This document shows positions 1 to 27,815 of a DNA stretch of 27,815 nucleotides, piece after piece. Each line of letters starts with the position of its first letter. Position 1 is the stretch's first letter. Source of the stretch: an uncultured Muribaculaceae bacterium (GTDB taxonomy: Bacteria > Bacillota_I > Bacilli_A > RF39 > UBA660). Where the stretch lies: the NCBI GenBank assembly GCA_964651795.1, contig CAZYWD010000001.1, positions 1 through 27,815 on the forward strand. Direction: 5' to 3'. Both the position numbers and the translations under genes were made by a program. Below the pieces are notes generated by a model. The model did no database searches. It was not told the origin of the DNA and saw only the letters and a list, made by a program, of their open reading frames with translations.

Positions 1-2
1 CG

Positions 3-80
3 GATGGAGATAACTTTCCATTACTAGGAAAAGTTATATATATAGATCCCGGACACGGAGGATACTTCTTAACCAGATAA
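3..80 (+). pseudogene. cwlD: 5' part of an interrupted CwlD-like N-acetylmuramoyl-L-alanine amidase (Amidase_3); runs off the left window edge; host-derived up to nt 55, then reads into the element and stops
   Basis: Frame from nt 3 reads DGDNFPLLGKVIYIDPGHGGYFLTR* (TAA 78-80). PLxGKxIYxDPGHGG matches the start of the CwlD catalytic domain (B. subtilis LPLSGKIIYLDPGHGG, recalled). Not in the ORF track. Confidence 0.8.
29..80. other. Left attachment junction (attL-type hybrid site); predicted crossover dinucleotide CA at 54-55
   Basis: Element-side arm TAACCAGATAA (70-80) is a 10/11 inverted match to TTATTTGGTTA (27737-27747) at the other end; after joining, the symmetry axis falls on CA 54-55. 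Confidence 0.85.
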
Positions 81-113
81 ATTAAAACTATCAAAATGTC
101 TTATATTACAACG

Positions 114-141
114 AAAATCATATTATAAAATATGATTTTTT
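114..141 (+). terminator. Weak AT-rich hairpin that may stop host-gene transcription entering the element
   Basis: AAAATCATATT (114-124) / AATATGATTTT (129-139), 4-nt loop, short T run, 34 nt after the truncating stop. Confidence 0.4.
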
Positions 142-214
142 AATTTTAATTTCTAATAATTGATCCATTTTATGATGTGGTATTTGTCTTTTGTCATAAA
201 AATATGAAAAGGAG

Positions 215-1111
215 ATGAATCTTAGCATGAATAGTAAAAAGAAATTAAAAGTTGGAACATTTTTTAGTGGTATTGGTTCGCCCGAAAAAGCACTTGAGAG
301 ATTAAAACAACAAAAATTACTAAAAGAATATGAAATAATGTTTTTTTCTGAAATAAATGAAAATGCAGTAAAGAGTTATTGTGCAATCCATGGTGTAGAT
401 AATAGCCTAAATTTAGGAAGTATTACTGAAATTAAAGGCAGTCAGTTGCCTTATTGTGATTTATGGATTGGGGGTTTCCCTTGTCAAGATATTTCCAATG
501 CAGGAAAAATGAGAGGATTTGAAAATAATAGTCTAACAAGATCATCCCTTGGATGGGAAATGATACGCTTAATTAAAGAAGTAACAAGGAAACCCAAATA
601 TGTTATATTTGAAAATGTAGCTAGTATCACAAATAAGAAGTTTATCAAAACATTAAATTTTTTCAAAGAAGATTTGATGAGTTTAGGGTATAAATTGTTT
701 GATAATGTACTAAATGCTATAGATTACGGAATACCTCAAACTAGAAAAAGGTATTTTTTAATTGCAATTCTTGATGAAAATATAAATTTTGAATTTCCTA
801 TTAAAGAGGAATCTATAGTTAAATTAAAAGATTTTTTAGATACAAGTGTCGAAGAGCAATATTATTTAACCGATGAAAGCTATGATGATATTGGGGGAAA
901 TATACGCGAATTTACTAAAATCGGTAATACTTGTGTCAAGTACCAAATTGATATGAAAAAATACAATTCAGGTGGTAAGTGTGGAATTGATAAAAGTAGT
1001 AAATTTGTTCAAACTTCTAGAATTTTTTCTGAATATGGTTATGCACCAACATTAACTGCATCTAATACGGCAGATAACTGTAAAATAGCTGTAGAAAGTG
1101 AGAAAAGATAA
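215..1111 (+). CDS. DNA (cytosine-5)-methyltransferase, large part (motifs I-VIII plus target-recognition region); start may be ATG 227
   Basis: Motif I FFSGIG, catalytic GGFPCQDIS, ENV, PQTRKRYF, PTLTAS; lacks motifs IX-X. SD AAGGAG at 209-214. Confidence 0.93.
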   Translation: MNLSMNSKKKLKVGTFFSGIGSPEKALERLKQQKLLKEYEIMFFSEINENAVKSYCAIHGVDNSLNLGSITEIKGSQLPYCDLWIGGFPCQDISNAGKMRGFENNSLTRSSLGWEMIRLIKEVTRKPKYVIFENVASITNKKFIKTLNFFKEDLMSLGYKLFDNVLNAIDYGIPQTRKRYFLIAILDENINFEFPIKEESIVKLKDFLDTSVEEQYYLTDESYDDIGGNIREFTKIGNTCVKYQIDMKKYNSGGKCGIDKSSKFVQTSRIFSEYGYAPTLTASNTADNCKIAVESEKR

Positions 1112-1113
1112 AT

Positions 1114-1299
1114 ATGAGGATAAGAAAAATTACTCCAAATGAAGCATGGAAACTAATGGGTTTTGATGAGTCTGATTATGAAAAAGCAAAGTTAGTTAAT
1201 TCTAAGTCCTCACTATATCACCAGGCAGGTAACTCAATTGTTGTAAATGTCATATATGAGATATTAAAAAAATTATTATCAAAATTTAATAAACAGTAA
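1114..1299 (+). CDS. DNA (cytosine-5)-methyltransferase, small part (motifs IX-X)
   Basis: RKITPNEAWKLMGF (motif IX) and LYHQAGNSIVVNVI (motif X); starts 2 nt after the upstream stop in a different frame; SD-like AAAGTGAG upstream. Confidence 0.9.
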   Translation: MRIRKITPNEAWKLMGFDESDYEKAKLVNSKSSLYHQAGNSIVVNVIYEILKKLLSKFNKQ

Positions 1300-1350
1300 T
1301 TAATAATATTCTAATATAAAAATTGTCTTTTTAAATTAACTAATTCTAAA

Positions 1351-1396
1351 TGATTAAAAAGATTAGTATTTTTTAATGATACTAATCTTTTAATCA
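1351..1396. terminator. Probable bidirectional intrinsic terminator between convergent genes
   Basis: TGATTAAAAAGATTAGTAT (1351-1369) / ATACTAATCTTTTAATCA (1379-1396), near-perfect with one bulged A. Confidence 0.65.
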
Positions 1397-1530
1397 ATTT
1401 AATTTTAATGTTGCAGTAAATAACAACAATTATAGGTAATTGTCTCAAGTTATTTTAGATAATGGTATAACTTTTTCAATGTGGATATAAGATAATTATT
1501 TCAATTAATTAATATGTTTTTATCTAATTA

Positions 1531-1896
1531 TTAAAGATATTTGGATACCAACTTTATTTCATCAGAATTTTTATTATACTTGAATATAATATTTTTATAT
1601 TGCATTTCATACATATTATAAATATAATCAGTTCCACTTAAGTTATTTTTATAGTTAGGCAAATTTAAATAATTATCCATATCTTCAAATAAATATGAAA
1701 TATGTAATTTTTTTTTGTTTTCTGTATATATTTTTAGTTTAACCTTTTTCTTATCTAATCTTATTATGTAATTGTCTAAAACATTATTATTTAATAACTT
1801 TAATAAAGAATCAATGTTATTTACTGTTTTAGAATTAAGTATGATTTTCTTAATTTTTCTTTTCTTAATAATAAATAATAGTTTATTGATCATCAT
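1531..1896 (-). CDS. Hypothetical protein (121 aa, Lys/Asn-rich)
   Basis: Strong SD AGGAGG 3-6 nt before ATGATG on the minus strand; divergent from the XRE gene; no recognisable motif. Confidence 0.65.
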   Translation of the reverse strand: MMINKLLFIIKKRKIKKIILNSKTVNNIDSLLKLLNNNVLDNYIIRLDKKKVKLKIYTENKKKLHISYLFEDMDNYLNLPNYKNNLSGTDYIYNMYEMQYKNIIFKYNKNSDEIKLVSKYL

Positions 1897-1927
1897 AAAC
1901 CTCCTAACAAATTATATATATAATTAA

Positions 1928-1985
1928 ACCACTAAAGTTGTTGGTTGTAAATAGTTTTAAAAAATCATACCATAATGTTGTTGGT
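1928..1985. promoter_or_regulatory. Divergent control region with two ACCA-N9/10-TGGT boxes (candidate XRE operators)
   Basis: ACCACTAAAGTTGTTGGT (1928-1945) and ACCATAATGTTGTTGGT (1969-1985), both containing GTTGTTGGT, directly before the XRE SD (GGAGG). Confidence 0.5.
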
Positions 1986-1999
1986 ATGGAGGTTTTATA

Positions 2000-2326
2000 A
2001 TGGAATTGAGACAGGTTTTTAAAAATAATGTTATTTATTATCGCCAAAAATTAAAAATATCTCAAGAGACACTAGCTGAATTATCAAATATAAGTACCAA
2101 TTACATTGGTGAAATCGAAAGAGGAAATAGAAAAGTAACAATAGATACAATTGAAAATATAGCAAAAGGATTGAATATTGATCCAATAAAACTGTTAGAA
2201 AAAAGAAAAAAAAACTTAAGAGTTCAAAAGTCGATATATTTTAAAATATATCGACTTTTTATTTTTTTGAAAAAACTTTTTGAAAAAATACAATTAATTT
2301 ATGTGTTGGAAATATTTAAGATTTAA
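2000..2326 (+). CDS. XRE/Cro-C1 helix-turn-helix regulator; domain ends near residue 70 and the C-terminal tail is probably not genuine
   Basis: YRQKLKISQETLAELSNISTNYIGEIERGNRKVTIDTIENIAKGLNI is a typical HTH_3. One fewer A in the A9 run (2206-2214) would stop it at TAA 2217-2219, just before a terminator. Confidence 0.88.
   Translation: MELRQVFKNNVIYYRQKLKISQETLAELSNISTNYIGEIERGNRKVTIDTIENIAKGLNIDPIKLLEKRKKNLRVQKSIYFKIYRLFIFLKKLFEKIQLIYVLEIFKI
2226..2268 (+). terminator. Perfect 34-bp palindrome plus T-tract (intrinsic terminator)
   Basis: AAAAGTCGATATATTTTAAAATATATCGACTTTT (2226-2259) equals its own reverse complement; followed by TATTTTTTT. Confidence 0.7.
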
Positions 2327-2376
2327 TGGTATACTATAGATACTAATACATGCTGTAGTAGTGGAAATGGCAAAAT

Positions 2377-2404
2377 TTGACAAAAGTTGAAAAAATGCTA
2401 TAAT
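2377..2404 (+). promoter_or_regulatory. Consensus sigma-A promoter for the HAD-acyl-CoA synthetase/plsC unit
   Basis: TTGACA (2377-2382), 16 nt, TATAAT (2399-2404) with extended TG at 2396-2397; ATG 25 nt downstream after SD GAGGGG. Confidence 0.8.
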
Positions 2405-2428
2405 ACACACCTATAAAGAGGGGATTTT

Positions 2429-4873
2429 ATGAGAAGAGTCGGTTTTGACATTGATGGGACGCTTACCAATTTTGAGAAGTTCGTATTTAGCCATGCTGTA
2501 AATTATATGAAAAGAAAATATAATATGAATGTTGTTAATTCGGATGGGTATGATGTCGATAAAGCTTTTGATATAGAAAATCAATTAATCGAAAGAGGAT
2601 ATTCAAAAGAAGAAGCAAATTTAAAAGCAACAGAAATATTGAATACTTTTTGGGAGAAGTATTATCCAGAATATATATTAACTCCATTTAGGGATGGGGT
2701 TAAGGAAACTATCAATCGACTATATGAAGATGGTAACGAAATTTTTATAATTTCATCAAGAAAAAAATCAACTGAAAATACACCTAAAGGAAAATTTGTA
2801 AAAGGGTCGATTAGTTTTCAACTTTTATTTAATCAAATAAAGTATCATCATCTTTTATTATTTGAAAATGATGAACAAAAATTACAAGCTATTAAAGATA
2901 ACTATATTGATATAATGGCAGACGATAAACCTGAATTATTGAGTAAAATAGCTGAATTTACAGATGCTGTTTGTATCAATAGTGCATATAATATTAAATT
3001 CAATTTACCTAATAATGTAAAAAGAGCTAATAATTATGTGAATAACGAGGTGTATGACATCATTAGCTCTATAATAAAAGAATCTAACGAGCCTATTTTA
3101 GATTCAGATTCATTAATTACTGGTGTTCCATCGATAGATAAATTGTGGTTAAGAAACTACACTAAAGGAGATTTAAAATGGTCATTACAAAAAATGTCAC
3201 CATATGATAGAATGACTAAAACAAACGCAAGTTTTAAAAAATATAAAATTACATCTTACTATAAAACTCCTATTATTAATGAGGAATTTACAAAAAAAGT
3301 TAATGATTGTGCAAAAAAATTAAATGCTGATGGAATAATAAAAGGTGATATTGTTCCATTGTTAGTTGTCAATACGCCAGAAACAGTGATAATGATTACA
3401 GCACTTATGAAATTGATGGTAACGATAGTACCAATTTCACCAGCTGATTCAACCATATCTATTGAAAATAAGTTATCTAAACTTAATTCAAAAAAACAAA
3501 TTAAAGTACTTTATATTGCTAATCATTTTATTGCTAAAGAAAATCAATTTGCAACTGATAAGATTAATCCGATAGTAGAAAAATTAAATATTAATAAAAT
3601 AATATATTCATCAGTTGAAGATTCAATGCCATTAAAGGAAACTATTGGATATAAAATAAAAATAAATAATAGAAAACCATTATTAAACGATAAATATATT
3701 TCTATGAATAATTATATTGCATCAGGTAATAAAATAGAAAATGATATTGATTTAGAATATAAAAATGATTATACAGCAGTTATTATTTATACTGGTGGGA
3801 CAGTCCAAACTAAAGGTGTTATGTTATCACCTGATAATCTTGACGCCGAGATTAGACATTTCTTGAATACTAGAATTGGAATAAAAAGAAATGAAAAAAT
3901 ATCAGGGATTTTACCATATGATCATATTTATGGTTTATTAATTAATTTGATTGTTCCGATTGCTAAAGGGATGGAAGTTGTTCAAAGACCAAAACCAGAA
4001 AGAGAAAAATTAGATGAACTTATTGTAAAAGAAAAAGTAAATTATTTTGCTACTATCCCAGTTTTATTAAATGAAGTGTTGAAAAACAAAAAAATATCTA
4101 AATCAACATTATCACATGTAAAGCAGGTATTTTCTGGGAGTGAAGCCATTTCTGATACATTATTAAAACAAATAAAAGATTTCTTTGCTGAACGAGGAGC
4201 AGATATAAATATTATTGATGGATATGGTGCTTCAGAGTTGACAGCGATGTGTTTAGAAAATGGAGTGCCTATAATTAGTGCAACACCTAAAATAGTGGGT
4301 TTAGAAACTGAAAAAGAATTAAGTTATAATAAAGTTGGGGAATTATGTATATCTGGTGATACAGTAATGCAGGGATATTTTGATAATGAAGAAAAAACAA
4401 AAGAAGTACTTAAAATACATGAGGATGGTAAAGTATGGTTACATACTGGAGATTTAGCTTATATAGATGAAAAAGGTAAAGTAGTTCCACAAGGAAGAAT
4501 TGATCAGGATATTATAAAAGTAAATAGTCAAATGGTTAATTTATTTGCCATTAGTAAAATGATAGAAAAACATCCTTGTGTGCAAAAATGTATTGTAATG
4601 AAATATCCATCTGAAAAAAAAGGAACAGTTCCAGTAGCATTTATTGAAATAAATCAAGATTTTATAGACGATGAAAATATTAAAGATTCAATTATAAAAT
4701 TATGTCAAAAATCTTTAACATACTATGAAATACCAGAAAACTTTATATTTATTAATAATATACCATTAACAACGCGTGGTAAAGTAGACAGAAATAAATT
4801 GTTAGAAGTATATGATAATGAGGAAAAAGAAAAAGTAATGATAAAACAAAGAGTAATCACATATTCTAAATAG
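2429..4873 (+). CDS. Fusion of an N-terminal HAD phosphatase (5'(3')-deoxyribonucleotidase-like) and an AMP-binding long-chain acyl-CoA synthetase
   Basis: HAD motif I FDIDGTL, motif II ISSR, motif IV ADDKP. ANL motifs YTGGTVQTKG, GYGASE, WLHTGDLAYID, GRID, PLTTRGKVDR. Confidence 0.85.
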   Translation: MRRVGFDIDGTLTNFEKFVFSHAVNYMKRKYNMNVVNSDGYDVDKAFDIENQLIERGYSKEEANLKATEILNTFWEKYYPEYILTPFRDGVKETINRLYEDGNEIFIISSRKKSTENTPKGKFVKGSISFQLLFNQIKYHHLLLFENDEQKLQAIKDNYIDIMADDKPELLSKIAEFTDAVCINSAYNIKFNLPNNVKRANNYVNNEVYDIISSIIKESNEPILDSDSLITGVPSIDKLWLRNYTKGDLKWSLQKMSPYDRMTKTNASFKKYKITSYYKTPIINEEFTKKVNDCAKKLNADGIIKGDIVPLLVVNTPETVIMITALMKLMVTIVPISPADSTISIENKLSKLNSKKQIKVLYIANHFIAKENQFATDKINPIVEKLNINKIIYSSVEDSMPLKETIGYKIKINNRKPLLNDKYISMNNYIASGNKIENDIDLEYKNDYTAVIIYTGGTVQTKGVMLSPDNLDAEIRHFLNTRIGIKRNEKISGILPYDHIYGLLINLIVPIAKGMEVVQRPKPEREKLDELIVKEKVNYFATIPVLLNEVLKNKKISKSTLSHVKQVFSGSEAISDTLLKQIKDFFAERGADINIIDGYGASELTAMCLENGVPIISATPKIVGLETEKELSYNKVGELCISGDTVMQGYFDNEEKTKEVLKIHEDGKVWLHTGDLAYIDEKGKVVPQGRIDQDIIKVNSQMVNLFAISKMIEKHPCVQKCIVMKYPSEKKGTVPVAFIEINQDFIDDENIKDSIIKLCQKSLTYYEIPENFIFINNIPLTTRGKVDRNKLLEVYDNEEKEKVMIKQRVITYSK

Positions 4874-4895
4874 CAAAAAAAAGGGGGGAAAAAAG

Positions 4896-5666
4896 ATGAA
4901 TATAAATATAAATATTAAAAAGTTTTTAACAGAAAATATTTATAGACTAGTCAAAATTCCTGTTAAACCATGTGTAATTTCAAAATATAAACCAATTATT
5001 TTAAATAAAGAATTAGTACCGGATAAAGAGTCAATAGTATTTGCTCCAAATCATAGACAAACAAATGATGCATTTTTGATGTTTTCATCAATTGATAAAC
5101 CGGTTCATTGGATGGCATTAAAAAGGTTTTTTACTGGTGAAGATAGTATTTTTAATAATAATAAAAATCCAATTCTTTGTAAAATGACAGCATTGGTATT
5201 TAATGGTATAGGTGCTGTTCCGATTATAAGAGATCAAGACATTGATAAATATCCAAATCAAGATAATAGTATATCACTAAAAGAATTTGATATGTATTTA
5301 AAGTTAAAAAGTAGTATAGGAATATTTCCGGAAGGAACAACAAATAAAGAACCAGAAAAGCAAAATTTACTTTCTCCAAAAAAGAGTGCATTTTATTTTG
5401 CTAAGGATAATAATTCTTATATTCAACCAATATCAATTACATGGATACCAAAAAGTTTGAATATTCAAAATAGGGCAATTATAAATTATCGTCAACCGTT
5501 TAAATCAACAGAAATGAATGTTCAAGAAATGATTGAATGTTGGATACAATCTGTAAATGAAGGATTAGAAGAGAATAAACAAATCGTTGAAAATTTGAAA
5601 AATTTAACTGAAATAGTTAATGTAAAAAAAGAATCAAAGAAACTAGAATTAGTTTTAAGAAAATAA
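4896..5666 (+). CDS. plsC: 1-acyl-sn-glycerol-3-phosphate acyltransferase family (lysophospholipid acyltransferase)
   Basis: NHRQTND (NHx4D), GAVPIIR, IFPEGTTN, K-SAF motifs. Confidence 0.9.
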   Translation: MNININIKKFLTENIYRLVKIPVKPCVISKYKPIILNKELVPDKESIVFAPNHRQTNDAFLMFSSIDKPVHWMALKRFFTGEDSIFNNNKNPILCKMTALVFNGIGAVPIIRDQDIDKYPNQDNSISLKEFDMYLKLKSSIGIFPEGTTNKEPEKQNLLSPKKSAFYFAKDNNSYIQPISITWIPKSLNIQNRAIINYRQPFKSTEMNVQEMIECWIQSVNEGLEENKQIVENLKNLTEIVNVKKESKKLELVLRK

Positions 5667-5699
5667 AAAGTGTATTCTTTTTATTTTTTTTACCAAATA

Positions 5700-5728
5700 A
5701 TGACAATTTTTTTTATTCATGATACAAT
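5700..5728 (+). promoter_or_regulatory. Sigma-A-like promoter for the hybrid kinase
   Basis: ATGACA (5700-5705), 17 nt, TACAAT (5723-5728) with extended TG; supports a start at ATG 5766 rather than GTG 5670. Confidence 0.6.
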
Positions 5729-5765
5729 ACTGTTGTGTAGTATTTATATGAAGGGCGGATTAAAA

Positions 5766-8624
5766 ATGCATTTAAGTTTTTTGTTATTAGCAGGCAGTTT
5801 GTTTTATGTAGTACTAATTGGAATTTTATATTTTATTAAAAAAAGAATTAAATTAATTGAAAATAGAATTTATGAAATTATTATTGGAACATCTATTATA
5901 GGAATAATCTTAGATTTTATAGGAATTTATGCGAATTTGAATTTTCCAGATACTAGTATAATTAGATGGTTAATTGTCAAACTTTATTTCTTATATTTAT
6001 TATCAATAGTATTTCTATTAACGTTCTATATTTTCTTTTCTGTCGTGAGTGATTTAGAAAAGACTGAAAAAGTAAAGAAAAGAATTAAGATAGAATTTAA
6101 TTTATTGATAACAACTTTTGCACTTTTTATAATATTAAATTTTATGTTACCATTTAGTTATTACAATGATGGGGATATTATTTATGTATATGGTGCTAAT
6201 GCTTATTTTCTGTATGGTGTTACGGGATTTACGATGCTTTGTTGGCTTATATATATAGGATTTAATTTTAAAAAGATTACTCCTAAAAAGTATTTACCAA
6301 TAATTGCTTTTGTATTAATAGGAGCACCAGTTGCTTATGTACAAATGATGCATCCAGAACTGCTATTAGTTACAGCACTGATATCTTTTATTGTTGTATT
6401 TATGTATCACACTATTGAAAATCCAGATTTAAAGATAATGAATCAATTATCTTTTGCAAAAGAACACGCAGAAAAGGCTAATCGTGCTAAATCTGAATTT
6501 TTATCTAGTATGAGTCATGAAATTAGAACACCTTTAAATGCGATTGTTGGATTTAGTGAGTGCATTAAAACTGAAAAAACATTAGAAGAAGCACAGAAGG
6601 ATGCTGATGATATAATTATGGCCAGTCAAAATTTACTAGAAATAGTAAATGGTGTTTTAGATATTTCTAAGATAGAAGCTAATAAAATGGAAATAGTAAA
6701 TAATAATTATCAGCTATTACCTCATTTAGAAAATTTAGCAAAATTGATAATACCAAGAATTGGTGAAAAACCAATAGAATTTATTACTAAATTTGCACCA
6801 GATATTCCGGCAGTAATGTATGGTGATCTTGGTAAAATCAAACAAATTATTACAAATATTCTAACAAATGCTGTAAAATATACTGAAAAAGGGCAAATAT
6901 ATTTTAATGTAAATTGTATTAATGAAAAAAATGTGTGTGATTTAATAATTTCAATAAAGGATACTGGGCGTGGTATCAAAAAAGAAAAAATAGACACTCT
7001 CTTTACGAAGTTTAATAGATTGGAAGAAGATAGAAACACAACTCTTGAAGGTACAGGGCTTGGACTAGCAATTACAAAATCTCTTGTAGATATGATGGGT
7101 GGAAGAATTGTGGTTCAGACTCAATATGGAGAAGGATCTAATTTTATAGTATATTTAAAACAACAAATAATTCAACTTCATGGCGGGGAAGAAAATCAGC
7201 ATATAGTAGAGGAAGATGAAAAACTAGATTTTTCAAATTTCAAAGTTTTATTAGTTGATGATAATAATTTAAATTTAAAAGTAGCAAATAAAATTTTAAA
7301 GGAATATAATATTGATACTGTATTAGTAGAAAGTGGTAGTCAAACAATTGAATTAATAAAAAAAGGAGAAAAGTTTGATTTAATTTTATTAGATGATATG
7401 ATGCCAAAGATGAGTGGCGTTGAAACATTACAGAATTTAAAACAAATAGAAGCATTCAATACTCCAACTGTTGCATTAACAGCAAATGCTTTATCAGGAA
7501 TGCGAGAACATTATTTAAAATTAGGCTTTAATGATTATTTAGCTAAACCAATTAATAAAGAAGAATTAAAATTAGTGTTAAAAAACTATTTAAAAGTTAA
7601 TAATTCTCCTACTAATTTAAAGACAAATGAAGGAACAATACAACTGGTTTTAAACATTAATTCTATTCCAGATAGTCAAGAGAAAAATAATCAAATTGAA
7701 ATGAAAGATTATAGTAATAAAAAAGTATTAATAGTTGATGATAACAAATTAAATATATCAGTTGCAAGAACATTTTTAAAACCATACAACTTTATAATAG
7801 AAGCGGTGCTAAGTGGGAATGAGTGTATTGAAAAAATAAATCAAGGAATAAAATATGACTTAATATTTATGGATTCTATGATGCCAGGAATGGATGGTAC
7901 AGAAACATTAAATAGACTAAATCAAATTCCTAACTTTAATACTAAAGTAATAGCTCTTACAGCTGATGCTGTAGAGGGAGCAAAGGAAAGATTTTTACAA
8001 GCGGGATTTAATTCTTATATATCAAAACCAATAAATAAAAAATTATTAGATGAAGAAATAAATAGATTAATTGGAAATGATTCAATTAAAAGTGATAACA
8101 GTAAGGAATTTCCGAAAGAATGGTTAGATATGAGTAAACCACCAAGTGAAATAAATGTTAATTCAGTTGATGAATATACACCTAATAATCAATTTTCATC
8201 AGTATATATAACTAAACAATCTAATGATAAAGACATAAATATTAATATTTCAAATTCTATAAATATTGGCAATGTAGATTATCTAAAACAAAATGGAATA
8301 GATGTGGATCATGGAATAGAGCTTTTAGGGGATATGGAGATGTACAATGACACTCTGAAAGAATTTATGCAAGAGATAAACGCAAGAGTAGATAAGTTAA
8401 AATTATATAAAGAACAGTCTGACATGCCTAATTATTCAATTGAAGTACATGCTTTAAAAAGTGACAGTAAGTATTTAGGATTTACAAAATTAGTAGATTT
8501 AGCATTTAATCATGAACTAAAAAGTAAAGAAGAAAACGTTATATATATTAATGAAAATTTTTCTAAATTAATTCAAGAATTAGAAAAAGTTTTAATCGTA
8601 GTAAAAGAATATATAAATTTATAA
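5766..8624 (+). CDS. Membrane-bound hybrid sensor histidine kinase: multi-TM sensor, HisKA, HATPase, REC, REC, Hpt
   Basis: About 7 hydrophobic segments; H-box MSHEIRTPLNAIVGF; N/G boxes ILTNAVKYT, DTGRGI, GTGLGL; two REC domains (VDDN...DDMMP...KPI and VDDN...DSMMP...KPI); Hpt VHALKSDSKYLG. Start moved to ATG 5766 (SD AAGGGCGG). Confidence 0.92.
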   Translation: MHLSFLLLAGSLFYVVLIGILYFIKKRIKLIENRIYEIIIGTSIIGIILDFIGIYANLNFPDTSIIRWLIVKLYFLYLLSIVFLLTFYIFFSVVSDLEKTEKVKKRIKIEFNLLITTFALFIILNFMLPFSYYNDGDIIYVYGANAYFLYGVTGFTMLCWLIYIGFNFKKITPKKYLPIIAFVLIGAPVAYVQMMHPELLLVTALISFIVVFMYHTIENPDLKIMNQLSFAKEHAEKANRAKSEFLSSMSHEIRTPLNAIVGFSECIKTEKTLEEAQKDADDIIMASQNLLEIVNGVLDISKIEANKMEIVNNNYQLLPHLENLAKLIIPRIGEKPIEFITKFAPDIPAVMYGDLGKIKQIITNILTNAVKYTEKGQIYFNVNCINEKNVCDLIISIKDTGRGIKKEKIDTLFTKFNRLEEDRNTTLEGTGLGLAITKSLVDMMGGRIVVQTQYGEGSNFIVYLKQQIIQLHGGEENQHIVEEDEKLDFSNFKVLLVDDNNLNLKVANKILKEYNIDTVLVESGSQTIELIKKGEKFDLILLDDMMPKMSGVETLQNLKQIEAFNTPTVALTANALSGMREHYLKLGFNDYLAKPINKEELKLVLKNYLKVNNSPTNLKTNEGTIQLVLNINSIPDSQEKNNQIEMKDYSNKKVLIVDDNKLNISVARTFLKPYNFIIEAVLSGNECIEKINQGIKYDLIFMDSMMPGMDGTETLNRLNQIPNFNTKVIALTADAVEGAKERFLQAGFNSYISKPINKKLLDEEINRLIGNDSIKSDNSKEFPKEWLDMSKPPSEINVNSVDEYTPNNQFSSVYITKQSNDKDININISNSINIGNVDYLKQNGIDVDHGIELLGDMEMYNDTLKEFMQEINARVDKLKLYKEQSDMPNYSIEVHALKSDSKYLGFTKLVDLAFNHELKSKEENVIYINENFSKLIQELEKVLIVVKEYINL

Positions 8625-8714
8625 AATTATTTTAATAATTAACGTATTATTTTTTGAGTTATAAAAAGGATTATGATAGTATGAATAAAAAATTATGTAA
8701 TTATGTATATTTTT

Positions 8715-8761
8715 GGAAGTAGTAAAAAGGCATTAAGCCATCTTTTCTGCTTCCTTTTTTT
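8715..8761 (+). terminator. Terminator-like hairpin plus T7 tract immediately upstream of the ugd SD (kinase terminator or attenuator)
   Basis: GGAAGTAG (8715-8722) / CTGCTTCC (8747-8754) outer stem, inner AAAA/TTTT and GGC/GCC pairs, T7 at 8755-8761; only 7 nt separate it from SD AAGGA. Confidence 0.6.
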
Positions 8762-8773
8762 GAAATGTAAGGA

Positions 8774-11797: not shown

Positions 11798-11798
11798 G

Positions 11799-17933: not shown

Positions 17934-17948
17934 TAGTGGGAGGTATGT

Positions 17949-20610: not shown

Positions 20611-20613
20611 ATT

Positions 20614-21600
20614 ATGAAAGATGTAATAATAATAGGGACAGGAAAAGCAGCACATTTACACTATAATTCATATAAAAAAATAACTAATTTAGGTAAACTT
20701 TATTTTGTAGATAAATATAAAGTTAATTCTAAATTTTTGGACTATGATATATACGAAAGCATTGATGAAGTGTTAACTACTAATAATATAAATGTAAAAA
20801 ATGTAATAATAGATGTCTGCACACCACGATCTCAGTTTGAAACCATTATTGACAAATGTATGAGCTTATCATTAAATAATATAATTGTGGAAAAGCCTTT
20901 TATTGTGTCAAGTAATTATTTTGACAATAAAGAAGATTTAAATATAAGGATGATTGAAAATTATTTGTATTCTAAAATAACAACTTTTTGTAAAAAATTT
21001 ATATCAAAAAACAATCTGAAAATAAATTCAATCTATAGTAATTTTTCTAAAAATAGAATAGTAGATAGCGGGAATGGTAGGGCAATGCATAATAATTCTA
21101 TACCTACAGTTTTTGAAATAGAAATGCCACATCAAATTTATTTGACAAATTATTTTGTTGATAGTGATACTAATATTAATGTTAGATATATTGATTCCAA
21201 AGCTATGATAATAGATGATAAAAAATTAAGTAGACACGGATATGGAATTATTTTTGCAGACAAAAATAATACAAATATTATTTATGAGAGTGATCTTACT
21301 AGTAATACTCTACAAAAAAAATTAATACTAGTCTGTAATAATGGAATATCAATATCGTTAGAATATATTCTGTATGATCTTGATATGAATAAGATTAAGG
21401 ATGGGACAATTGCCATTTTTCAAAATAATAAATTAATAAAACACTATATAATTGATGAGGATGATATGATGTTTTATTGTATACAGGAATATTATATAAA
21501 ATTATCAAATAATGAGAAGTTTTATAGCTCAAAAAAAGATATTGTTGATTTTTCTACTGAGATAAATAGATATATAAATTATGCGAGTTTAAATGACTAA
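20614..21600 (+). CDS. Gfo/Idh/MocA-family NAD(P)-dependent oxidoreductase
   Basis: IIGTGKAA, IDVCTP, IIVEKP, EMPHQI. Confidence 0.8.
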   Translation: MKDVIIIGTGKAAHLHYNSYKKITNLGKLYFVDKYKVNSKFLDYDIYESIDEVLTTNNINVKNVIIDVCTPRSQFETIIDKCMSLSLNNIIVEKPFIVSSNYFDNKEDLNIRMIENYLYSKITTFCKKFISKNNLKINSIYSNFSKNRIVDSGNGRAMHNNSIPTVFEIEMPHQIYLTNYFVDSDTNINVRYIDSKAMIIDDKKLSRHGYGIIFADKNNTNIIYESDLTSNTLQKKLILVCNNGISISLEYILYDLDMNKIKDGTIAIFQNNKLIKHYIIDEDDMMFYCIQEYYIKLSNNEKFYSSKKDIVDFSTEINRYINYASLND

Positions 21601-22612
21601 TGATAATTATTTTTTTAGTATAATTGTAACTGTATATAATAATTCGAAATATATTGAAAAATGTTTAGATTCAATAATTCCTTATTTAAAATCAAATTAT
21701 GAACTTATTATTGTTAATGATGGTTCGACAGATAATAGTTTAAAACTATGTAAGGAAAAAATTAAAAATATTTCTAATTGCTCAATTATTAGTCAATTAA
21801 ATGGTGGTGTTTCATCAGCTCGTAATGTTGGTATAAAATCATCAAGTGGAGAATATTTGATTTTTATTGATGGAGATGATTGGATATTTGGGAATGTTTT
21901 TTGTGAGTTGGAAAGATGCATATCAAACGCAAACCCTGATTTTGTATTAATGAATACAATAAAATATATTGAAAAAGATAATAATTATATAGTTGAAAAA
22001 ATGTTTTTTCCCGATGATTTACAGCTTGTTGAAAAAAATTTATATAATTTGATAAATAATAAAGTTTTTGGAAGGGCATGGCGTTTTATAGTATCAAAAA
22101 AATTAATTAATAAAGAGGTGCTTTTATTTCATGAAGGATTAATTTTTGAAGATGAAGAGTGGTCAATAAAATTAGTTTTATCTTCTCGAAATATGTTGTA
22201 TTTCAATCAAAATTATTATGTGTATCGCAAAACCAATAATACAATTACATCCTCAAAAACATTTGAAAAATACTTAGATTTATTAGAAATTACTATTTCC
22301 AGTTATAACTGGTGTCTAGAACGTGATCTGACTATTAATCAAAAAAGGTATTATAGAAAATTATTATTTAGATGTATCAGAAATATTTATGGAAGTTATA
22401 CAAAATTTTCCAATGAACAAAAAAAATATATTAAGAAATGGAATAAGGGACATCAAGATATTATAAGCGATATATTGTTATGTAATTTATCACTTTTCTT
22501 TCTAGCAAAATTTATAAGTCCTATATATTTGTTTAAACTATACAAAAGCATAAAACATAGACATACTAAAAAAGACTATATACGATTAGAAGAAAGTAAA
22601 GAAGTAATATAA
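21593..22612 (+). CDS. Family 2 glycosyltransferase
   Basis: SIIVTVYN, VNDGSTD, NGGVSSARNVG, FIDGDD, FED. Confidence 0.93.
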   Translation: MTNDNYFFSIIVTVYNNSKYIEKCLDSIIPYLKSNYELIIVNDGSTDNSLKLCKEKIKNISNCSIISQLNGGVSSARNVGIKSSSGEYLIFIDGDDWIFGNVFCELERCISNANPDFVLMNTIKYIEKDNNYIVEKMFFPDDLQLVEKNLYNLINNKVFGRAWRFIVSKKLINKEVLLFHEGLIFEDEEWSIKLVLSSRNMLYFNQNYYVYRKTNNTITSSKTFEKYLDLLEITISSYNWCLERDLTINQKRYYRKLLFRCIRNIYGSYTKFSNEQKKYIKKWNKGHQDIISDILLCNLSLFFLAKFISPIYLFKLYKSIKHRHTKKDYIRLEESKEVI

Positions 22613-22650
22613 AAAGCAAAAGAAAATTAATTCTTTTGCTTTTGTTTTTT
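22612..22650. terminator. Bidirectional intrinsic terminator between the 14-gene operon and the nucleotidyltransferase
   Basis: Perfect 13-bp stem AAAAGCAAAAGAA (22612-22624) / TTCTTTTGCTTTT (22631-22643), loop AATTAA, T-rich tail. Confidence 0.85.
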
Positions 22651-22653
22651 TAG

Positions 22654-23421
22654 TTAGGCTAACTTTATTCTATAATTAGTAAGGTTTAATTGTGTTGTTT
22701 TCGTTATATAATTAAAAATTGAAATAATAATACTTATTTTTTCAGCATTATTTAAATGCTCATCAATTGCTTTCAAATACAAATCAACAAATTCTTTTTC
22801 AGGAATAGTTTTATGAATTGCATTTCTATATCCCTTTGTGTCGGTATATAATTTATATACTTTGTTGGATGTTAATTTTGTAAACCCTTGCATTTGATGA
22901 TAAAGCCTTTGAATTTTTTCAATGGTTATATGATAAAAATGATTAAAATAAGGGTTACTATTTTCTAACATTTCTTGAAGTTGACATATATAATCGTAAA
23001 TTACTGTTAGTCTTTCTTCAATTTTTTCAATACTAATTTCAGGAAAGGGAAGAGAAAAGCACTCCTTTATATGTTCTTGAAGTTTTATTATTTCTCCATT
23101 TCTATCATAAATAATTTTTCCATATCCAATAATACTTAACAAAGCATTATCCTGATTTTTAAAATCTTTTGGTACGCTATTATAAATATAATCTAACGAT
23201 TTTTCTATATAATCAATTTTCATACCATCTATAATAGTCGAACCTTTTATAACCATAAAGTTAACACAATTTTTATATATTATATGCAAGTCTAAATCTG
23301 ATTTATCAGTATTAAATCCAGTAGAAAAACTTCCATATAAAACAATGCCTTCAACATTATCATTATTAAGGTAATCCATTTTTTGAATAAATTTATTTAA
23401 AATTTTATTGTAGTCTAACAT
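22654..23421 (-). CDS. Pol-beta-superfamily nucleotidyltransferase with a helical C-terminal domain
   Basis: LYGSFSTGFNTDKSDLDL (GS...DxD) and IDY. Start ATG 23421 preferred (SD AAAGGTGG). Confidence 0.85.
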   Translation of the reverse strand: MLDYNKILNKFIQKMDYLNNDNVEGIVLYGSFSTGFNTDKSDLDLHIIYKNCVNFMVIKGSTIIDGMKIDYIEKSLDYIYNSVPKDFKNQDNALLSIIGYGKIIYDRNGEIIKLQEHIKECFSLPFPEISIEKIEERLTVIYDYICQLQEMLENSNPYFNHFYHITIEKIQRLYHQMQGFTKLTSNKVYKLYTDTKGYRNAIHKTIPEKEFVDLYLKAIDEHLNNAEKISIIISIFNYITKTTQLNLTNYRIKLA

Positions 23422-23448
23422 AAATATTTCCACCTTTTATTAATGATT

Positions 23449-23478
23449 ATTATATAACATAGTATTAAGATGTGTCAA
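23449..23478 (-). promoter_or_regulatory. Sigma-A promoter for the nucleotidyltransferase
   Basis: Minus-strand TTGACA (23478-23473), 18 nt, TATAAT (23454-23449). Confidence 0.65.
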
Positions 23479-23524
23479 CAAATAGCTATCTTCATTGCAT
23501 AATAAAAAACTGATATCATCAGTT

Positions 23525-23764
23525 TTAATCATCAAAATTCTGTTCAAATAAGTTACTGTCAAAAAATTCTTTAAGTGTAATATTCAAGGTTTTACAAATT
23601 TTATAAATTATATACGAACTGGGATTTGCAACTTTGTTATTCATGATTCCACATAAAGTAGAATTTGAAATACCACTCAATTCTGCCAGTTTATTTTGAG
23701 AGTAATTTCTTTCTTCACATAATTCCAATATACGTTTGCTAACAGCATTTCTAAAAAGTATCAT
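23525..23764 (-). CDS. XRE-family HTH regulator (79 aa)
   Basis: RILELCEERNYSQNKLAELSGISNSTLCGIMNNKVANPSSYIIYKICKTLNITLKEFF. Start ATG 23764 with SD GGGTGG, rather than 23854. Confidence 0.9.
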   Translation of the reverse strand: MILFRNAVSKRILELCEERNYSQNKLAELSGISNSTLCGIMNNKVANPSSYIIYKICKTLNITLKEFFDSNLFEQNFDD

Positions 23765-23821
23765 ATCTACCACCCATAACAATTTTAACAAAATAAAAAC
23801 AATAAAGTTTACGGATATCCG

Positions 23822-23850
23822 TAGACTTTTTGCAATTGATATGTTATAAT
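23822..23850 (+). promoter_or_regulatory. Sigma-A-like promoter facing 23977, divergent from the XRE gene
   Basis: TAGACT (23822-23827), 17 nt, TATAAT (23845-23850) with extended TG. Confidence 0.55.
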
Positions 23851-23976
23851 ACAAATATGTTAATTTATAACTTATTAATTTATAATTATATGAAAATTAA
23901 CAAAATAATTAAGAGAGTAGTTGTTGGTTGTAAATATCTAGCAGTGCTCTCTTTTTGATTTAAAGGAGGTTTTAAA

Positions 23977-24519
23977 ATGTATAATAAGTTATTACTGGAA
24001 TTTGATAATTTACTCAATGATGAAGCGAAAAGAATAGCAACAATAATAGAGAGTCTATACAAAACTATAACTTTTGAAAAGATTGACTTAGCTAAACTAG
24101 TAAGAAAAAATATTAAACAGGAATTTACATATTATTGGATAGATATAGAAATACGAGTATTTAATTTGTTATTTGATAATGAAAAAGACTATTTAAAAGA
24201 AAAATGTGATAGTGAAAAAAATTTGAAAAAATATGCATTATGGTGTAAAAGAGAAATGAAATCTAAAGACCACTTAAAAGGAGCTGATAGACTAGCTGAA
24301 ATTATAATTGAATTATATCAACAAAACGATGATATAAAAATTAATCTTATAACTTTATTGGCAGATAATATGAATGAATTATTCCCTGAACATAATGATT
24401 GTGTAGATGCGAGAACAACTATTTTGTATTTGCAAAAGGAGATAAGAAAGAAAGGGTATATTATAAGTTCTCTTTCACCTTTTCATTTGTCTAAAAAAAC
24501 AATCAAAAGTTATTTATGA
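23977..24519 (+). CDS. Hypothetical protein (180 aa)
   Basis: Strong SD AAAGGAGG; no recognisable motif. Confidence 0.75.
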   Translation: MYNKLLLEFDNLLNDEAKRIATIIESLYKTITFEKIDLAKLVRKNIKQEFTYYWIDIEIRVFNLLFDNEKDYLKEKCDSEKNLKKYALWCKREMKSKDHLKGADRLAEIIIELYQQNDDIKINLITLLADNMNELFPEHNDCVDARTTILYLQKEIRKKGYIISSLSPFHLSKKTIKSYL

Positions 24520-24741
24520 ACTAACAAAAACTGTATATTATTTATATTATAAAATAGTAAAGCAAATATTATAATAAAAAAATGTTTGAACTTCAAACAT
24601 TAATTTGGATATTTGGCGTCTACTCGTGCTGGAAGATTTTTGGAAATCAATTAGAGTACATTTCAACAATAGAAAAAGAGAAAGTTCAAGAGTATTATAA
24701 AAATAAAAATTTATAGTTAAATAATAGGAAAGGCGAATATT

Positions 24742-25020
24742 ATGTTGAATAAAGAAGCAATTAAGAATCATCTAAATTATTTGAAAAACAATAAATTTTC
24801 AATGGAATTTTATATTGCATTATTACTTTATGATATGTCAATAGTGGAATCTAACAAAGTTATAGATAAAAACATTTCATGGAATATACAAAAAATGTTT
24901 GATGACATGTATAAAAAAGATTTAAGAGATAAAATTAAACAAAATAAAAATCTAAAAAATAAAAAAATAGAAAAAAGTGTAAATGAAACTAAAGAAATTG
25001 ATTTTGAGGTAGATGTATGA
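24742..25020 (+). CDS. Hypothetical protein (92 aa) translationally coupled to the sortase
   Basis: SD AGGAAAGG; ATGA overlap with the next gene. Confidence 0.65.
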   Translation: MLNKEAIKNHLNYLKNNKFSMEFYIALLLYDMSIVESNKVIDKNISWNIQKMFDDMYKKDLRDKIKQNKNLKNKKIEKSVNETKEIDFEVDV

Positions 25021-25760
25021 GAAAAATTGAAAAAATAGTTTTCATACTTTTTTTATGCCTCTTTTGCTTTTCTTTATATAATTATTTAAATAGTTATCAC
25101 TATTTAAGATTAGAAAATAAAGTTCAAAATGAGTTGATTGAAATTGCAACATCTGATGAATTATCTGTTATAGAAGGAATAAATATAGAACAGACTTCAA
25201 AAATAAACTTTGAAGAACTAAAAACAATTAACAAGGATGTAGTTGGATGGATAAAGATAGATGGAACAAATATTGATTACCCTGTTGTACAATCCGATAA
25301 TAATAGTTATTACTTAAAACGTAATATATATAAAGAATATAGTCCTTATGGTACAATTTTTATTGATGCTACTTCTAGTTTAAATTTTAGTGATAATAAT
25401 ACTTTTATATATGGACACAACACATTAAATCGTTCGATGTTTGCAGATATTAAAAAGTATATGAATAAAGAATTTTACAAAAATAATCATGCTTATCTAT
25501 ATACGCCTACTAAAAATTATAAAATTGAAATTTTTAGTGCTTATTACGATGATGCAATGTCTGATTCATATATTTTAAAATTTAATAATGATTTAGATTG
25601 GATTAATTATTTAGATATAATAAAATCTAAAAGTTTTTATAAAACAAATGTAGAGGTTAATGTGAATGATTCAATTATAACTTTGTATTCTTGTAGTTTT
25701 GAAAAAAGTAATAATAAAGATAATAGGTATTTTATTCATGGTAAGTTAATAGAAATATAA
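25017..25760 (+). CDS. srtB: Class B sortase
   Basis: N-terminal anchor; INKDVVGWIKIDGTNIDYPVVQ, YGHN (His), TLYSC (Cys), RYFIHG (Arg). Confidence 0.92.
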   Translation: MRKIEKIVFILFLCLFCFSLYNYLNSYHYLRLENKVQNELIEIATSDELSVIEGINIEQTSKINFEELKTINKDVVGWIKIDGTNIDYPVVQSDNNSYYLKRNIYKEYSPYGTIFIDATSSLNFSDNNTFIYGHNTLNRSMFADIKKYMNKEFYKNNHAYLYTPTKNYKIEIFSAYYDDAMSDSYILKFNNDLDWINYLDIIKSKSFYKTNVEVNVNDSIITLYSCSFEKSNNKDNRYFIHGKLIEI

Positions 25761-25860
25761 ATTTTTTTATTGAATATATTTAAAATAGGATTGCTTTGAA
25801 TTGATGTTTTAATTAAGATTTATAAGATAAGGTTCAAAAATAATTAAAGGGGGAATCAAA

Positions 25861-25983
25861 TTGAACAATTCTTTCAAAGTGAAAAATATTTTTAAAAACA
25901 TTGATAATAATGATAAATTAAAGATTCAAGAGGTGTTTAATTTAAAACTTTTAAAAATAATAATCTTGTTAGAAAAAATATAG
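25861..25983 (+). CDS. Unannotated 40-aa ORF upstream of the recombinase (candidate recombination directionality factor)
   Basis: SD AAAGGGGGA (25846-25854), TTG start, MNNSFKVKNIFKNIDNNDKLKIQEVFNLKLLKIIILLEKI*, TAG 25981-25983; too short for the ORF track. Confidence 0.6.
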   Translation: MNNSFKVKNIFKNIDNNDKLKIQEVFNLKLLKIIILLEKI

Positions 25984-25997
25984 AATTTTAATATGGG

Positions 25998-26026
25998 CTG
26001 AAAAAAATACTATCATATGCTATAAT
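25998..26026 (+). promoter_or_regulatory. Extended -10 sigma-A-like promoter for the recombinase
   Basis: TG-C-TATAAT (26018-26026), weak -35 CTGAAA 17 nt upstream. Confidence 0.5.
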
Positions 26027-26085
26027 AAATATGTTGTGCATATTAGCGTTTTGATAGTTATTACAAATTAAGGAAGGTAATAACT

Positions 26086-27687
26086 ATGAAGAAAAAGGTA
26101 GGTGTTTATTGCAGGCTGTCAGAAGAGGATCGAATTAAAGACCATATTTCTGACGAAAGTGAAAGTATTCAAAATCAGAGAAATATGCTCTTAAAGTATG
26201 TTTATGATAATGAGTGGGATTTATATGATGTTTATGTTGATGAGGATTATTCTGGAGCAGGTGTAGAAAGACCGGATTTTAACAGATTAATTGCCGATTG
26301 TGAAAATGGAAACGTAAATATTGTTATTTGTAAAACTCAGTCTAGATTTTCAAGAGATATGGAAGTAATTGAAAAATACTTGCATAATAAATTTGTAGAG
26401 TGGCGAGTAAGGTTTATTAGTTTATTAGATAATGCAGATACCGATAATAAAGGAAATAAAAAGGCAAGACAAATTAATGGACTTACCAATGAATGGTATT
26501 TGGAAGATTTATCTGAAAATATTAAAGGAACTTTATTGTCAAAAAAGAAAAGAGGAGAATTTACTGGTAGTTTTGCACCACTTGGATATATGAAAGATCC
26601 AGTTGATAAAAATCATTTAGTAATAGATCCAATTGCAAGTAAATATATTAATAAGATATTCAATCTATATAAACAAGGATATGGATATCAAAAAATCGTA
26701 AAACAATTGAATAAAGAAGAAATACCAAGCCCTTATGAGTACAAAAAAATGACGGGTAGCAATTTCAAAGTAATTAATTGTAAACAAAAATCATCTTGGA
26801 GTATAGATACTATATCAAAAATATTGAGGGATGAAGTTTATATTGGAAATTTAGTACAAGGGAAAACAAGGCATATTAGTTATAAGAATAAAAAATCTAT
26901 AAAAGTTCCAAAAGATGAATGGATAAAAGTTGAAAATACACATGATAAAATAATCGATTTAGAAACTTGGAATATTGTTCAACTTAGACTTGGGAAAAAT
27001 CTAAAAACTCAAAAAGGGACAGAAAAAGTTCATATTTTTTCAGGGAAAGTTTATTGTGAAAAATGTGGAAAAATATTTTGTAAAAATACAGGGCTCACTT
27101 CTACTGGAAAAGTACATTATTTGGAATGTAAGAGTAGGAGAAACGGGCATCGTGATTGTAATAATACTCGCGCAATTCGTTTTGATTATTTGGAGAAATG
27201 TATTATAGATTCTATGAATTGTTTACTAAAGCAATATTATAATGAATCATTACTAAATGATAATTACAAAAATTTAAAAAGCAAATCTAATCAGACATTT
27301 TTGAAAATAGAAATATTGCAAAAAGAACAAAATGTCATACAAAATCAAAAAGAAAAAAAACAAAGATATTATGAAAAACTTTATGAGGATAGAGTAGATG
27401 AAGTGATTACTGATAAAGAATTTAGAGACTTTAGAAAAAAATATAGTGAAGAAATAGAAAAATTAGAGAATAGGCTATTTCAAATAAATAAGGAAATAGA
27501 AGAACTTTCACAAAAAAAACAAAATATAAAATCGCAGGATAAAATACTCAGCAAATATAAACACATTGATAAATTAAATAGAGAAATTATTGATGAATTT
27601 ATTGATAGAATATTAGTTGGAGGGTTTGATGAAGAAACAGGACAACGATATCTTACAATTGAATGGAATTTTGAATTTTATGAGTAA
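26086..27687 (+). CDS. Large serine recombinase (resolvase catalytic domain, recombinase domain, zinc ribbon, coiled coil)
   Basis: VYCRLS (catalytic Ser12), YVDEDYSG, RPDFNRLI, KTQSRFSRD, APLGY, zinc ribbon FSGKVYCEKCG...LEC...C, C-terminal coiled coil; SD AAGGAAGG. Confidence 0.97.
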   Translation: MKKKVGVYCRLSEEDRIKDHISDESESIQNQRNMLLKYVYDNEWDLYDVYVDEDYSGAGVERPDFNRLIADCENGNVNIVICKTQSRFSRDMEVIEKYLHNKFVEWRVRFISLLDNADTDNKGNKKARQINGLTNEWYLEDLSENIKGTLLSKKKRGEFTGSFAPLGYMKDPVDKNHLVIDPIASKYINKIFNLYKQGYGYQKIVKQLNKEEIPSPYEYKKMTGSNFKVINCKQKSSWSIDTISKILRDEVYIGNLVQGKTRHISYKNKKSIKVPKDEWIKVENTHDKIIDLETWNIVQLRLGKNLKTQKGTEKVHIFSGKVYCEKCGKIFCKNTGLTSTGKVHYLECKSRRNGHRDCNNTRAIRFDYLEKCIIDSMNCLLKQYYNESLLNDNYKNLKSKSNQTFLKIEILQKEQNVIQNQKEKKQRYYEKLYEDRVDEVITDKEFRDFRKKYSEEIEKLENRLFQINKEIEELSQKKQNIKSQDKILSKYKHIDKLNREIIDEFIDRILVGGFDEETGQRYLTIEWNFEFYE

Positions 27688-27736
27688 AAAATTATATATT
27701 ATATATACAAATTATATAAAGGAAAAGAATATATTA

Positions 27737-27788
27737 TTATTTGGTTACTTATGTACCCTCACATGGTGGATTAGATCCAGGTGCTATG
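27737..27788. other. Right attachment junction (attR-type hybrid site); predicted crossover dinucleotide CA at 27762-27763
   Basis: Element arm TTATTTGGTTA (27737-27747) is the inverted partner of 70-80; the host amidase frame resumes after it. Confidence 0.85.
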
Positions 27789-27815
27789 TATCAATCTGTA
27801 ATGGAAAAAGATATT
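27762..27815 (+). pseudogene. cwlD: 3' continuation of the interrupted CwlD-like amidase (runs off the right window edge)
   Basis: CAT GGT GGA TTA GAT CCA GGT GCT ATG ... GAA AAA GAT ATT = HGGLDPGAMYQSVMEKDI, the Amidase_3 segment containing the second zinc ligand (Glu in EKD). Confidence 0.8.

Follow-up and report, generated by a model that had tools for sequence, protein, structure and literature searches.

The stretch of DNA considered here, contig CAZYWD010000001.1 at its full length of 27,815 nt (the window), constitutes the complete contig C1 in a metagenome-assembled genome (MAG; G000) of 788 kb, which consists of 159 contigs, is 52% complete and has a GC content of ~24%. We consider it almost certain that the window holds a serine-recombinase element integrated in an amidase gene of the cwlD type, and that this integration is exactly reversible. 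Spores depend on cwlD for germination and for muramic-delta-lactam; with the island present the gene is in two pieces and is inactive. The parts of the window on which this description depends, all on the forward strand, are the following:

1..55, +, end of the cwlD 5' piece, with the codons for ..DGDNFPLLGKVIYIDPG and the CA of the His codon
46..69, +, attL, GATCCCGGA-CA-CGGAGGATACTTC, with the likely crossover CA at nt 54-55
56..27763, +, integrated element of 27,708 bp, its boundary ambiguous within the shared ACA
25861..25983, +, open reading frame (ORF) of 40 aa, AAAGGGGG, with a strong ribosome-binding site (RBS), member of a small-ORF family that is conserved immediately upstream of recombinases of this clade
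26086..27687, +, large serine recombinase (LSR) of 533 aa, with Resolvase, Recombinase, Zn ribbon and DUF4368 domains
27753..27778, +, attR, GTACCCTCA-CA-TGGTGGATTAGATCC
27762..27815, +, start of the cwlD 3' piece, HGGLDPGAMYQSVMEKDI..

The split gene, its empty sites and the crossover

Nucleotides 3-56 encode DGDNFPLLGKVIYIDPGH, after which the frame continues as GGYFLTR and reaches a stop 8 codons after the cwlD part, and the right end of the window (nt 27762-27815) translates as HGGLDPGAMYQSVMEKDI. The rest of the gene was found on two further contigs of the same MAG. The last 55 nt of contig C129 (reverse complement) are identical to window nt 1-55, and this contig holds the remainder of the 5' piece (L001:3-125, minus strand) with the start codon and a hydrophobic N-terminus corresponding to a signal or anchor peptide. 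The first 55 nt of contig C97 (reverse complement) are identical to window nt 27761-27815, and the remaining 162 codons of the 3' piece lie on it (L002:2886-3428, minus strand). These 55-nt overlaps place a branch point of the assembly graph precisely at each junction. When the two flanks are joined without nt 56-27763, a stop-free ORF of 221 aa results. The zinc-binding GHGG motif is broken within its His codon, which both junctions retain, as CAC in attL and as CAT in attR. The first-pass annotation of this DNA had predicted that removal of 27,708 bp would rebuild a cwlD-type gene without a scar, and this was borne out by the extended frame; its claim that a serine-recombinase element is responsible is likewise upheld by the intact LSR at the end of the element. 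An artefact of a circular contig was considered and rejected, as the cwlD halves stand in the wrong order for it.

A protein search with the cwlD 3' piece returned three proteins of 221 aa that are 99% identical to the query, and one of them (P0002), a natural protein from another sample, equals the predicted joined ORF but for one residue. The family was assessed with the NCBIfam equivalog model TIGR02883 (spore_cwlD), which has a curated cut-off of 221.55 bits. P0002 scored 218.0 bits over model positions 1-189 of 189, thus 3.5 bits under the cut-off, with the next family at ~70 bits, and the 3' piece alone scored 196.6 bits. The best PDB chain was 7RAG_B, the germination-specific amidase CwlD of C. 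difficile (139.5 bits, E 1.5e-39; next amidase 71.5), and in the alignment to it the GHGG, EKDINL and SIHLNA motifs are identical. Apart from its hydrophobic N-terminus, the joined ORF is a single Amidase_3 domain. Its assignment as CwlD-type, as the first-pass annotation had it, is therefore well supported by these profiles, TIGR02883 being by far the best family, with the curated cut-off narrowly missed.

The same annotation had advised a search for relatives with an empty site, and these were found. The joined flanks match contig L019, from a different sample, with 99.63% identity over 5,425 nt and no gap, and the predicted attB, GATCCCGGACATGGTGGATTAGATCC, is present in it letter for letter. 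Two more empty sites with identical attB were found in Logan contigs from other runs, which brings to three the samples with an empty site of the same species. The neighbours in L019 also match those of the carrier, with a SAM (S-adenosylmethionine) methyltransferase, a helix-turn-helix (HTH) protein and a 52-aa ORF upstream, and Abi_2, a TtcA-like protein and a cation ATPase downstream. The occupied form was recovered independently too, since Logan contig L095, from another run, has the same LSR-attR-cwlD junction with 100% identity over 1,472 nt. Together with the natural empty sites, this junction indicates that the insertion is real and polymorphic within the species. The one residue that differs is Thr in the empty alleles and Ile in both occupied alleles, and the flanks of empty and occupied sites differ by ~0.4%.

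Occupied and empty forms can moreover coexist. In run X1 a flank contig with a depth of 55 stops at nt 55, and the element contig, with a depth of 22, starts at nt 26; from these depths ~60% of the loci take another path that diverges at nt 56, fitting attB, and ~40% carry the element. In run X4 no empty path was seen in the contigs, and one contig spans attL and 68 nt further into the flank. The element itself is nearly unchanged in bioreactor and wastewater metagenomes from at least four studies (2019-2025). Some internal joints of reads or contigs with sides of 20-23 nt were also inspected and were discarded as noise from other organisms or AT-rich repeats.

The attachment sites read ggaCAcGGaGGATac for attL, tcaCAtGGtGGATta for attR and ggaCAtGGtGGATta for the empty sites. 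Only two dinucleotides, CA (nt 54-55) and GG (nt 57-58), are common to the attL/attR pairs of G000 and of the two related genomes G010 and G009 described below. All three empty sites have T/T at positions 56 and 59, which makes CA the simplest crossover. The near-identical element of run X4 (wastewater) has attL CAtGGtGGATac instead of CAcGGaGGATac (T56/T59); this variant could stem from a crossover in another register or from an element with an altered arm.

The recombinase, its candidate small partner and the cargo

All four domains of the LSR are intact (PF00239 74.5, PF07508 84.4, PF13408 31.2 and DUF4368 34.7 bits). The nearest solved relatives of its catalytic domain are a recombinase of a C. 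difficile conjugative transposon, the TP901-1 integrase and TnpX, and by sequence the LSR is of the TnpX-like type.

Directly upstream, the 40-aa ORF has no family in Pfam or PHROGs. A homologue with 53% identity is placed in the same position in G010, and a profile made from these two sequences showed that members of the family end ~70-100 nt upstream of an LSR in at least 40 loci. Complex prediction with LSR residues 160-533 and the 40-aa ORF gave a score of 0.65 (best control 0.00), a value attained by 51 of 78 solved complexes and by 2 of 108 mismatched pairs. The predicted contacts join LSR residues 364-376 and 507-531 (DUF4368 tail) with ORF residues 3-14, the fold of the partner being uncertain. 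The modelling supports, without proving, binding of the 40-aa ORF to the LSR. This ORF may be an accessory or directionality factor, as its likeness to GirX, the 42-aa protein of the gin element (PMC5595907), suggests. In many relatives (e.g. L022, L037, L049 and G010) a conserved mini-ORF of ~9 codons (MIKIGGYSL-type) with a strong AAGGAGG RBS lies ~60-100 nt upstream of the small ORF. It is absent from the copy in the window; its role may be that of a leader peptide or of a device for translational coupling.

The remaining genes of the element are:

215..1111, +, C5 cytosine DNA methyltransferase (Dcm; DNA_methylase 165 bits, TIGR00675)
2000..2326, +, HTH regulator of the Cro/CI type (profile match)
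2429..22612, +, cargo operon or operons, ~20 kb of co-oriented biosynthetic and sensory genes (Pfam-type domain matches)
22654-23433, -, nucleotidyltransferase (domain match)
23525-23854, -, second HTH regulator (domain match)
25017..25760, +, sortase-domain protein (domain match), preceded by two ORFs without an assigned family

The first part of the cargo encodes a HAD-AMP-ligase fusion, an acyltransferase, a hybrid histidine kinase (5670-8624), a UDP-glucose 6-dehydrogenase and a fatty acyl-AMP ligase. These are followed by a DUF1749 hydrolase, a TIM-barrel enzyme, a NAD-binding enzyme, a NUDIX protein and two PHP proteins, and the last part comprises a GT1 glycosyltransferase, an APH-like kinase, a GFO oxidoreductase and a GT2 glycosyltransferase. 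Judged by its domains, the cargo is a gene set of the envelope glycoconjugate or glycolipid type. With ~24-25% GC, the element matches the genome in base composition. No capsid, terminase, tail, portal, packaging or lysis gene was found in Pfam and PHROGs searches of the element ORFs, and domain searches found no relaxase/Mob or conjugation gene in any of them. By its gene content the element is thus neither phage-like nor conjugative. Rfam and repeat searches of the window gave nothing relevant.

Relatives at the same codon and the host lineage

The cwlD gene is split at the same His codon in G010 (element of ~6.2 kb) and G009 (~8 kb), both of the same genus and both with this architecture inside long contigs (425 kb in G010). 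The same codon is also split in a sister species (L094) and in G014, which belongs to another genus. In all four the LSR, 44-49% identical, adjoins the 3' piece; over these (at least four) species of the lineage and the loci of the wider scan given next, the identity of the LSRs at this codon is 44-52%. Eight other genomes of the family have an intact cwlD gene. The cargo is wholly different among the elements, with Bro-N, HTH and sigma-70-like genes in G010 and an FtsK-like ATPase and a rolling-circle Rep in G009.

A wider scan, limited to one genome per species, gave 74 related LSR loci, 48 of them with enough downstream sequence. In 32 of these 48 (tblastn), and in 2-3 more by eye (32-35/48, ~70%), an Amidase_3 fragment that starts from the GHGG His codon follows within 15-60 nt after the LSR. 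Some of the targets are CwlD-type (172-212 bits on TIGR02883 with the 3' piece alone) and others combine Amidase_3 with LysM, which points to an LSR clade that targets the motif. This deserves attention because recombinases with DUF4368 are usually classed as multi-targeting (PMC10083194). The 26-bp target would be conserved because it encodes the catalytic motif.

Several features of these relatives were recorded beside the scan. The G010 element (L013, G010:C1:187500-199000; ~2740-9000) encodes a sigma-70-family factor of 219 aa, GcrA/HTH, HTH_36 and Bro-N, and a search of sequencing runs for this smaller element gave shares of at most 0.17. The G009 LSR (L014, G009:C33, 7918-10008) has 696 aa, with an open frame of 697 aa, and its match to the LSR of the window is broken between residues 302 and 312, which indicates an insertion of roughly 100-160 aa. 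With its FtsK-like ATPase and Rep_ORF2/G2P, the G009 element looks like an integrative mobilizable or replicative element. Among the LysM-type targets, a second frame break was seen right after the metal-binding motif H(I/L)NAGG(G) in L043:4655-4915 and ~14 other loci (L021, L022, L024, L034-L036, L038-L040, L045, L047, L051, L066 and L073). Intact relatives read on as ..GGGDGAEVIY past this point, and downstream of it in L043 there are small ORFs and two Dcm methylases. The second break suggests a second insertion hotspot, by which such amidase genes would be in three pieces.

The split copies of cwlD show no decay, as all frames are open and their dN/dS (0.07-0.33) is in the same range as in intact-intact pairs. 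No second cwlD-like copy was found in G010 or G009. In C. difficile and B. subtilis cwlD is under sigmaE (mother-cell) control (PMC3789822, PMC517825). A CATATA(A/T)T box, which is the -10 type of mother-cell sigma factors (PMC3789822), lies 7-8 nt before the cwlD RBS (AGGTG) and is kept in 10 of 10 species, split alleles included, within otherwise unconserved AT-rich DNA (L001, L019, L004, L006-L010, L013-L015).

The first-pass annotation had also asked for spo0A, sigE, sigK and pdaA in the host. In G000 we found spoIVA (705 bits), spoVAD (390 bits), part of spo0A, and sigK, and near-complete relatives hold spo0A, sigK, a sigE-like gene and spoIVA. The expectation therefore holds for spo0A and sigK, and for sigE through the sigE-like gene of the relatives, but pdaA, the gene of the partner deacetylase of CwlD (TIGR02884, cut-off 298), is represented only by generic polysaccharide deacetylases at ~100 bits. 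SleB was not found in the genus. The host lineage (G000, G001-G019) has genomes of ~0.9-1.4 Mb with ~24% GC, unusually small for apparent endospore formers, yet spo0A, a sigE-like gene, sigK, spoIVA and spoVAD are kept. The sigK gene of G000 spans contigs C50 and C21 with an exact 55-nt overlap inside the gene; the joined gene is intact and the overlap indicates that the assembly graph branched there too, which could be due to a strain variant or to another intervening element in part of the population.

Possible excision during sporulation and comparison with known systems

We propose that the 27.7-kb island has integrated by serine-recombinase site-specific recombination into the CAY His codon of GHGG in what is the host's sole detectable gene for a CwlD-type spore-cortex amidase. 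The responsible module consists of the TnpX-like LSR and the conserved 40-aa ORF just upstream, which probably binds it, and the same module with other cargo occupies the same codon in the sister species and in many other Firmicutes. Precise recombination of attL with attR would restore cwlD without a scar. Tolerance of the split in a spore-former would most likely be explained by the mechanism of skin, SPbeta and gin. The mother cell, which is terminally differentiated and expresses cwlD, would then lose the island through the action of the LSR and its small partner, and the chromosome of the forespore would retain it. We infer three things: the island is excised, its excision is timed to sporulation and the 40-aa ORF governs the reaction. 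Sporulation-timed excision, suggested by the analogous elements, has in our estimation about an even chance of being correct, and the skin-like interpretation taken as a whole is just as evenly poised. The proposal of the first-pass annotation that this is a developmentally excised element is thus sustained in part. Integration, scar-free rebuilding, empty sites and host sporulation genes speak for it, but excision and its timing have no direct support, as attP was not seen and the empty sites are a different allele. In the view of that annotation such an element might also keep its large cargo under selection.

Several observations weigh against excision in the mother cell. Contig C1 and the Logan contigs run unbroken where a path through attP would branch, and no circle was seen. 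The predicted attP was also not matched in pattern scans of JGI metagenome contigs and IMG/VR, a collection without this species, and that negative is uninformative because a control pattern for attB/attR likewise gave nothing. The empty sites look like those of co-resident strains rather than excision products, because of the Thr/Ile difference and the ~0.4% divergence of the flanks, and the depths of 55 and 22 in run X1 fit a mixture of strains, not rare mother-cell events. A promoter of the sporulation type could be recognized neither for the LSR nor for the 40-aa ORF, no promoter is conserved upstream of the latter, and in a scan for sigma-70 promoters sites were no more frequent than in shuffled sequence.

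The lack of any attP also speaks for the rival reading, an ordinary site-specific mobile island for which the GHGG-coding DNA of Amidase_3 genes is only a reliable landing site. The island would then inactivate cwlD, its carriers would persist as spore germination matters little in bioreactors and wastewater, and excision would serve transfer or loss and be untimed. Because the same LSR clade also hits LysM amidases outside the CwlD type, what it recognizes may be no more than a conserved stretch of DNA, and sister elements with an FtsK-like ATPase and Rep, or with phage-like regulators, resemble ordinary mobile elements and look mobilizable or replicative. Other strains have the site empty, which makes the element polymorphic (~40% occupied in X1, no empty path seen in X4). 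Moreover, TnpX-type recombinases can excise without a directionality factor and need no developmental one (PMC5704250), and LSRs with DUF4368 are typical of the multi-targeting clade. On the other hand, the split is kept in several species without a second cwlD copy or decay of either piece, the sporulation gene set is retained in a host genome of no more than ~1-1.4 Mb, and the element stayed nearly unchanged across the studies mentioned above. In addition, every LSR element in a sporulation gene tested experimentally so far excises in sporulation (PMC4191935, PMC5595907, PMC10747680). We place the probability of an ordinary mobile island a little below even.

The fragmented and half-complete MAG, with contigs that end exactly at overlaps of k-mer length, might suggest that the element contig was misjoined to amidase fragments or derives from another organism. 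Such an artefact of assembly or binning is extremely improbable given that L095, from another run, has the same junction, that the X4 contig spans attL and its flank, that the GC content of the element is that of the genome and that the same architecture lies inside long contigs of G010 and G009. A prophage of the skin or SPbeta type, intact or defective, is very improbable as well. The two Cro/CI-type HTH regulators and the integrase do match phage families, but ~20 kb of the element is biosynthetic cargo and the searches of its ORFs returned no structural, packaging or lysis gene of a phage.

Extending sporulation-timed excision to the relatives, we tentatively suggest, and somewhat doubt, that TnpX-like LSRs with tiny partners form a clade specialised on the GHGG-coding DNA of sporulation-type Amidase_3 genes. 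Elements of any content would be carried in the germ line of small-genome spore-formers and cut from the mother-cell chromosome at each sporulation, cwlD would be developmentally assembled, and some relatives would put together a LysM amidase from three parts, the gene being divided at two different catalytic motifs.

The targets of intervening elements listed in reviews are sigK, spsM, spoVFB, spoVR, gerE and yabG. The first-pass annotation had left it undecided whether cwlD had been reported as such a target; full-text literature searches turned up no paper in which cwlD is connected with an intervening element or named as a recombinase target. If excision is timed to sporulation, cwlD would join these six genes as one that a DNA rearrangement makes whole, the list would gain its first enzyme of the cortex or of germination, and large non-phage metabolic islands could use the sporulation-gene niche. 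If excision is untimed, there would still be a widespread motif-targeting LSR clade by which germination genes of uncultured spore-formers are inactivated. The LSR, its 40-aa partner and the 26-bp target make a compact and testable unit of integration and excision. What is new here is the evidence that occupied and empty forms co-occur within one sample, the existence of natural empty sites in the species itself and the great size of the biosynthetic cargo.

Among known systems, skin in sigK (SpoIVCA in B. subtilis; CD1231 with the directionality factor CD1234 in C. difficile; PMC5025042) and SPbeta in spsM (SprA/SprB; PMC4191935, PMC5499854) are likewise LSR elements that split a mother-cell sporulation gene, and the germ line keeps the element. 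These two are prophages, in part defective, whereas no phage genes are present here; furthermore the target is here a codon of the catalytic motif of an enzyme, and the same LSR clade also hits paralogous amidases. The yin element in yabG of Clostridium botulinum (PMC10747680) is also an intervening element of a sporulation gene and was found in integrated and excised forms, but its target is another gene, it resembles a prophage and only one strain is known to have it. Tn4451/Tn4453 with TnpX (PMC5704250) share the recombinase type, the DUF4368 tail and the possibility of excision as a circle without a classical directionality factor. They have many insertion sites with a GA core and a Mob gene, whereas the element of the window is strictly site-specific, with one codon, common to several species, as its target, and no Mob/relaxase domain or other mobilization gene in any ORF.

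In form the element is closest to gin in gerE of B. cereus ATCC 10987 (GirC and the 42-aa GirX; PMC5595907), its recombinase being of the TnpX type. Both are non-prophage elements that interrupt a mother-cell sporulation gene whose frame is restored by precise excision, and both pair a large serine recombinase with a very small (~40-aa) partner, the partners being likened by their size and lack of any motif. They differ in the target (gerE, not cwlD), in the far larger biosynthetic cargo of 27.7 kb and in the TnpX/DUF4368 type of the LSR. Moreover, excision and its sporulation timing are proven for gin, whereas for the cwlD element they are proposed.

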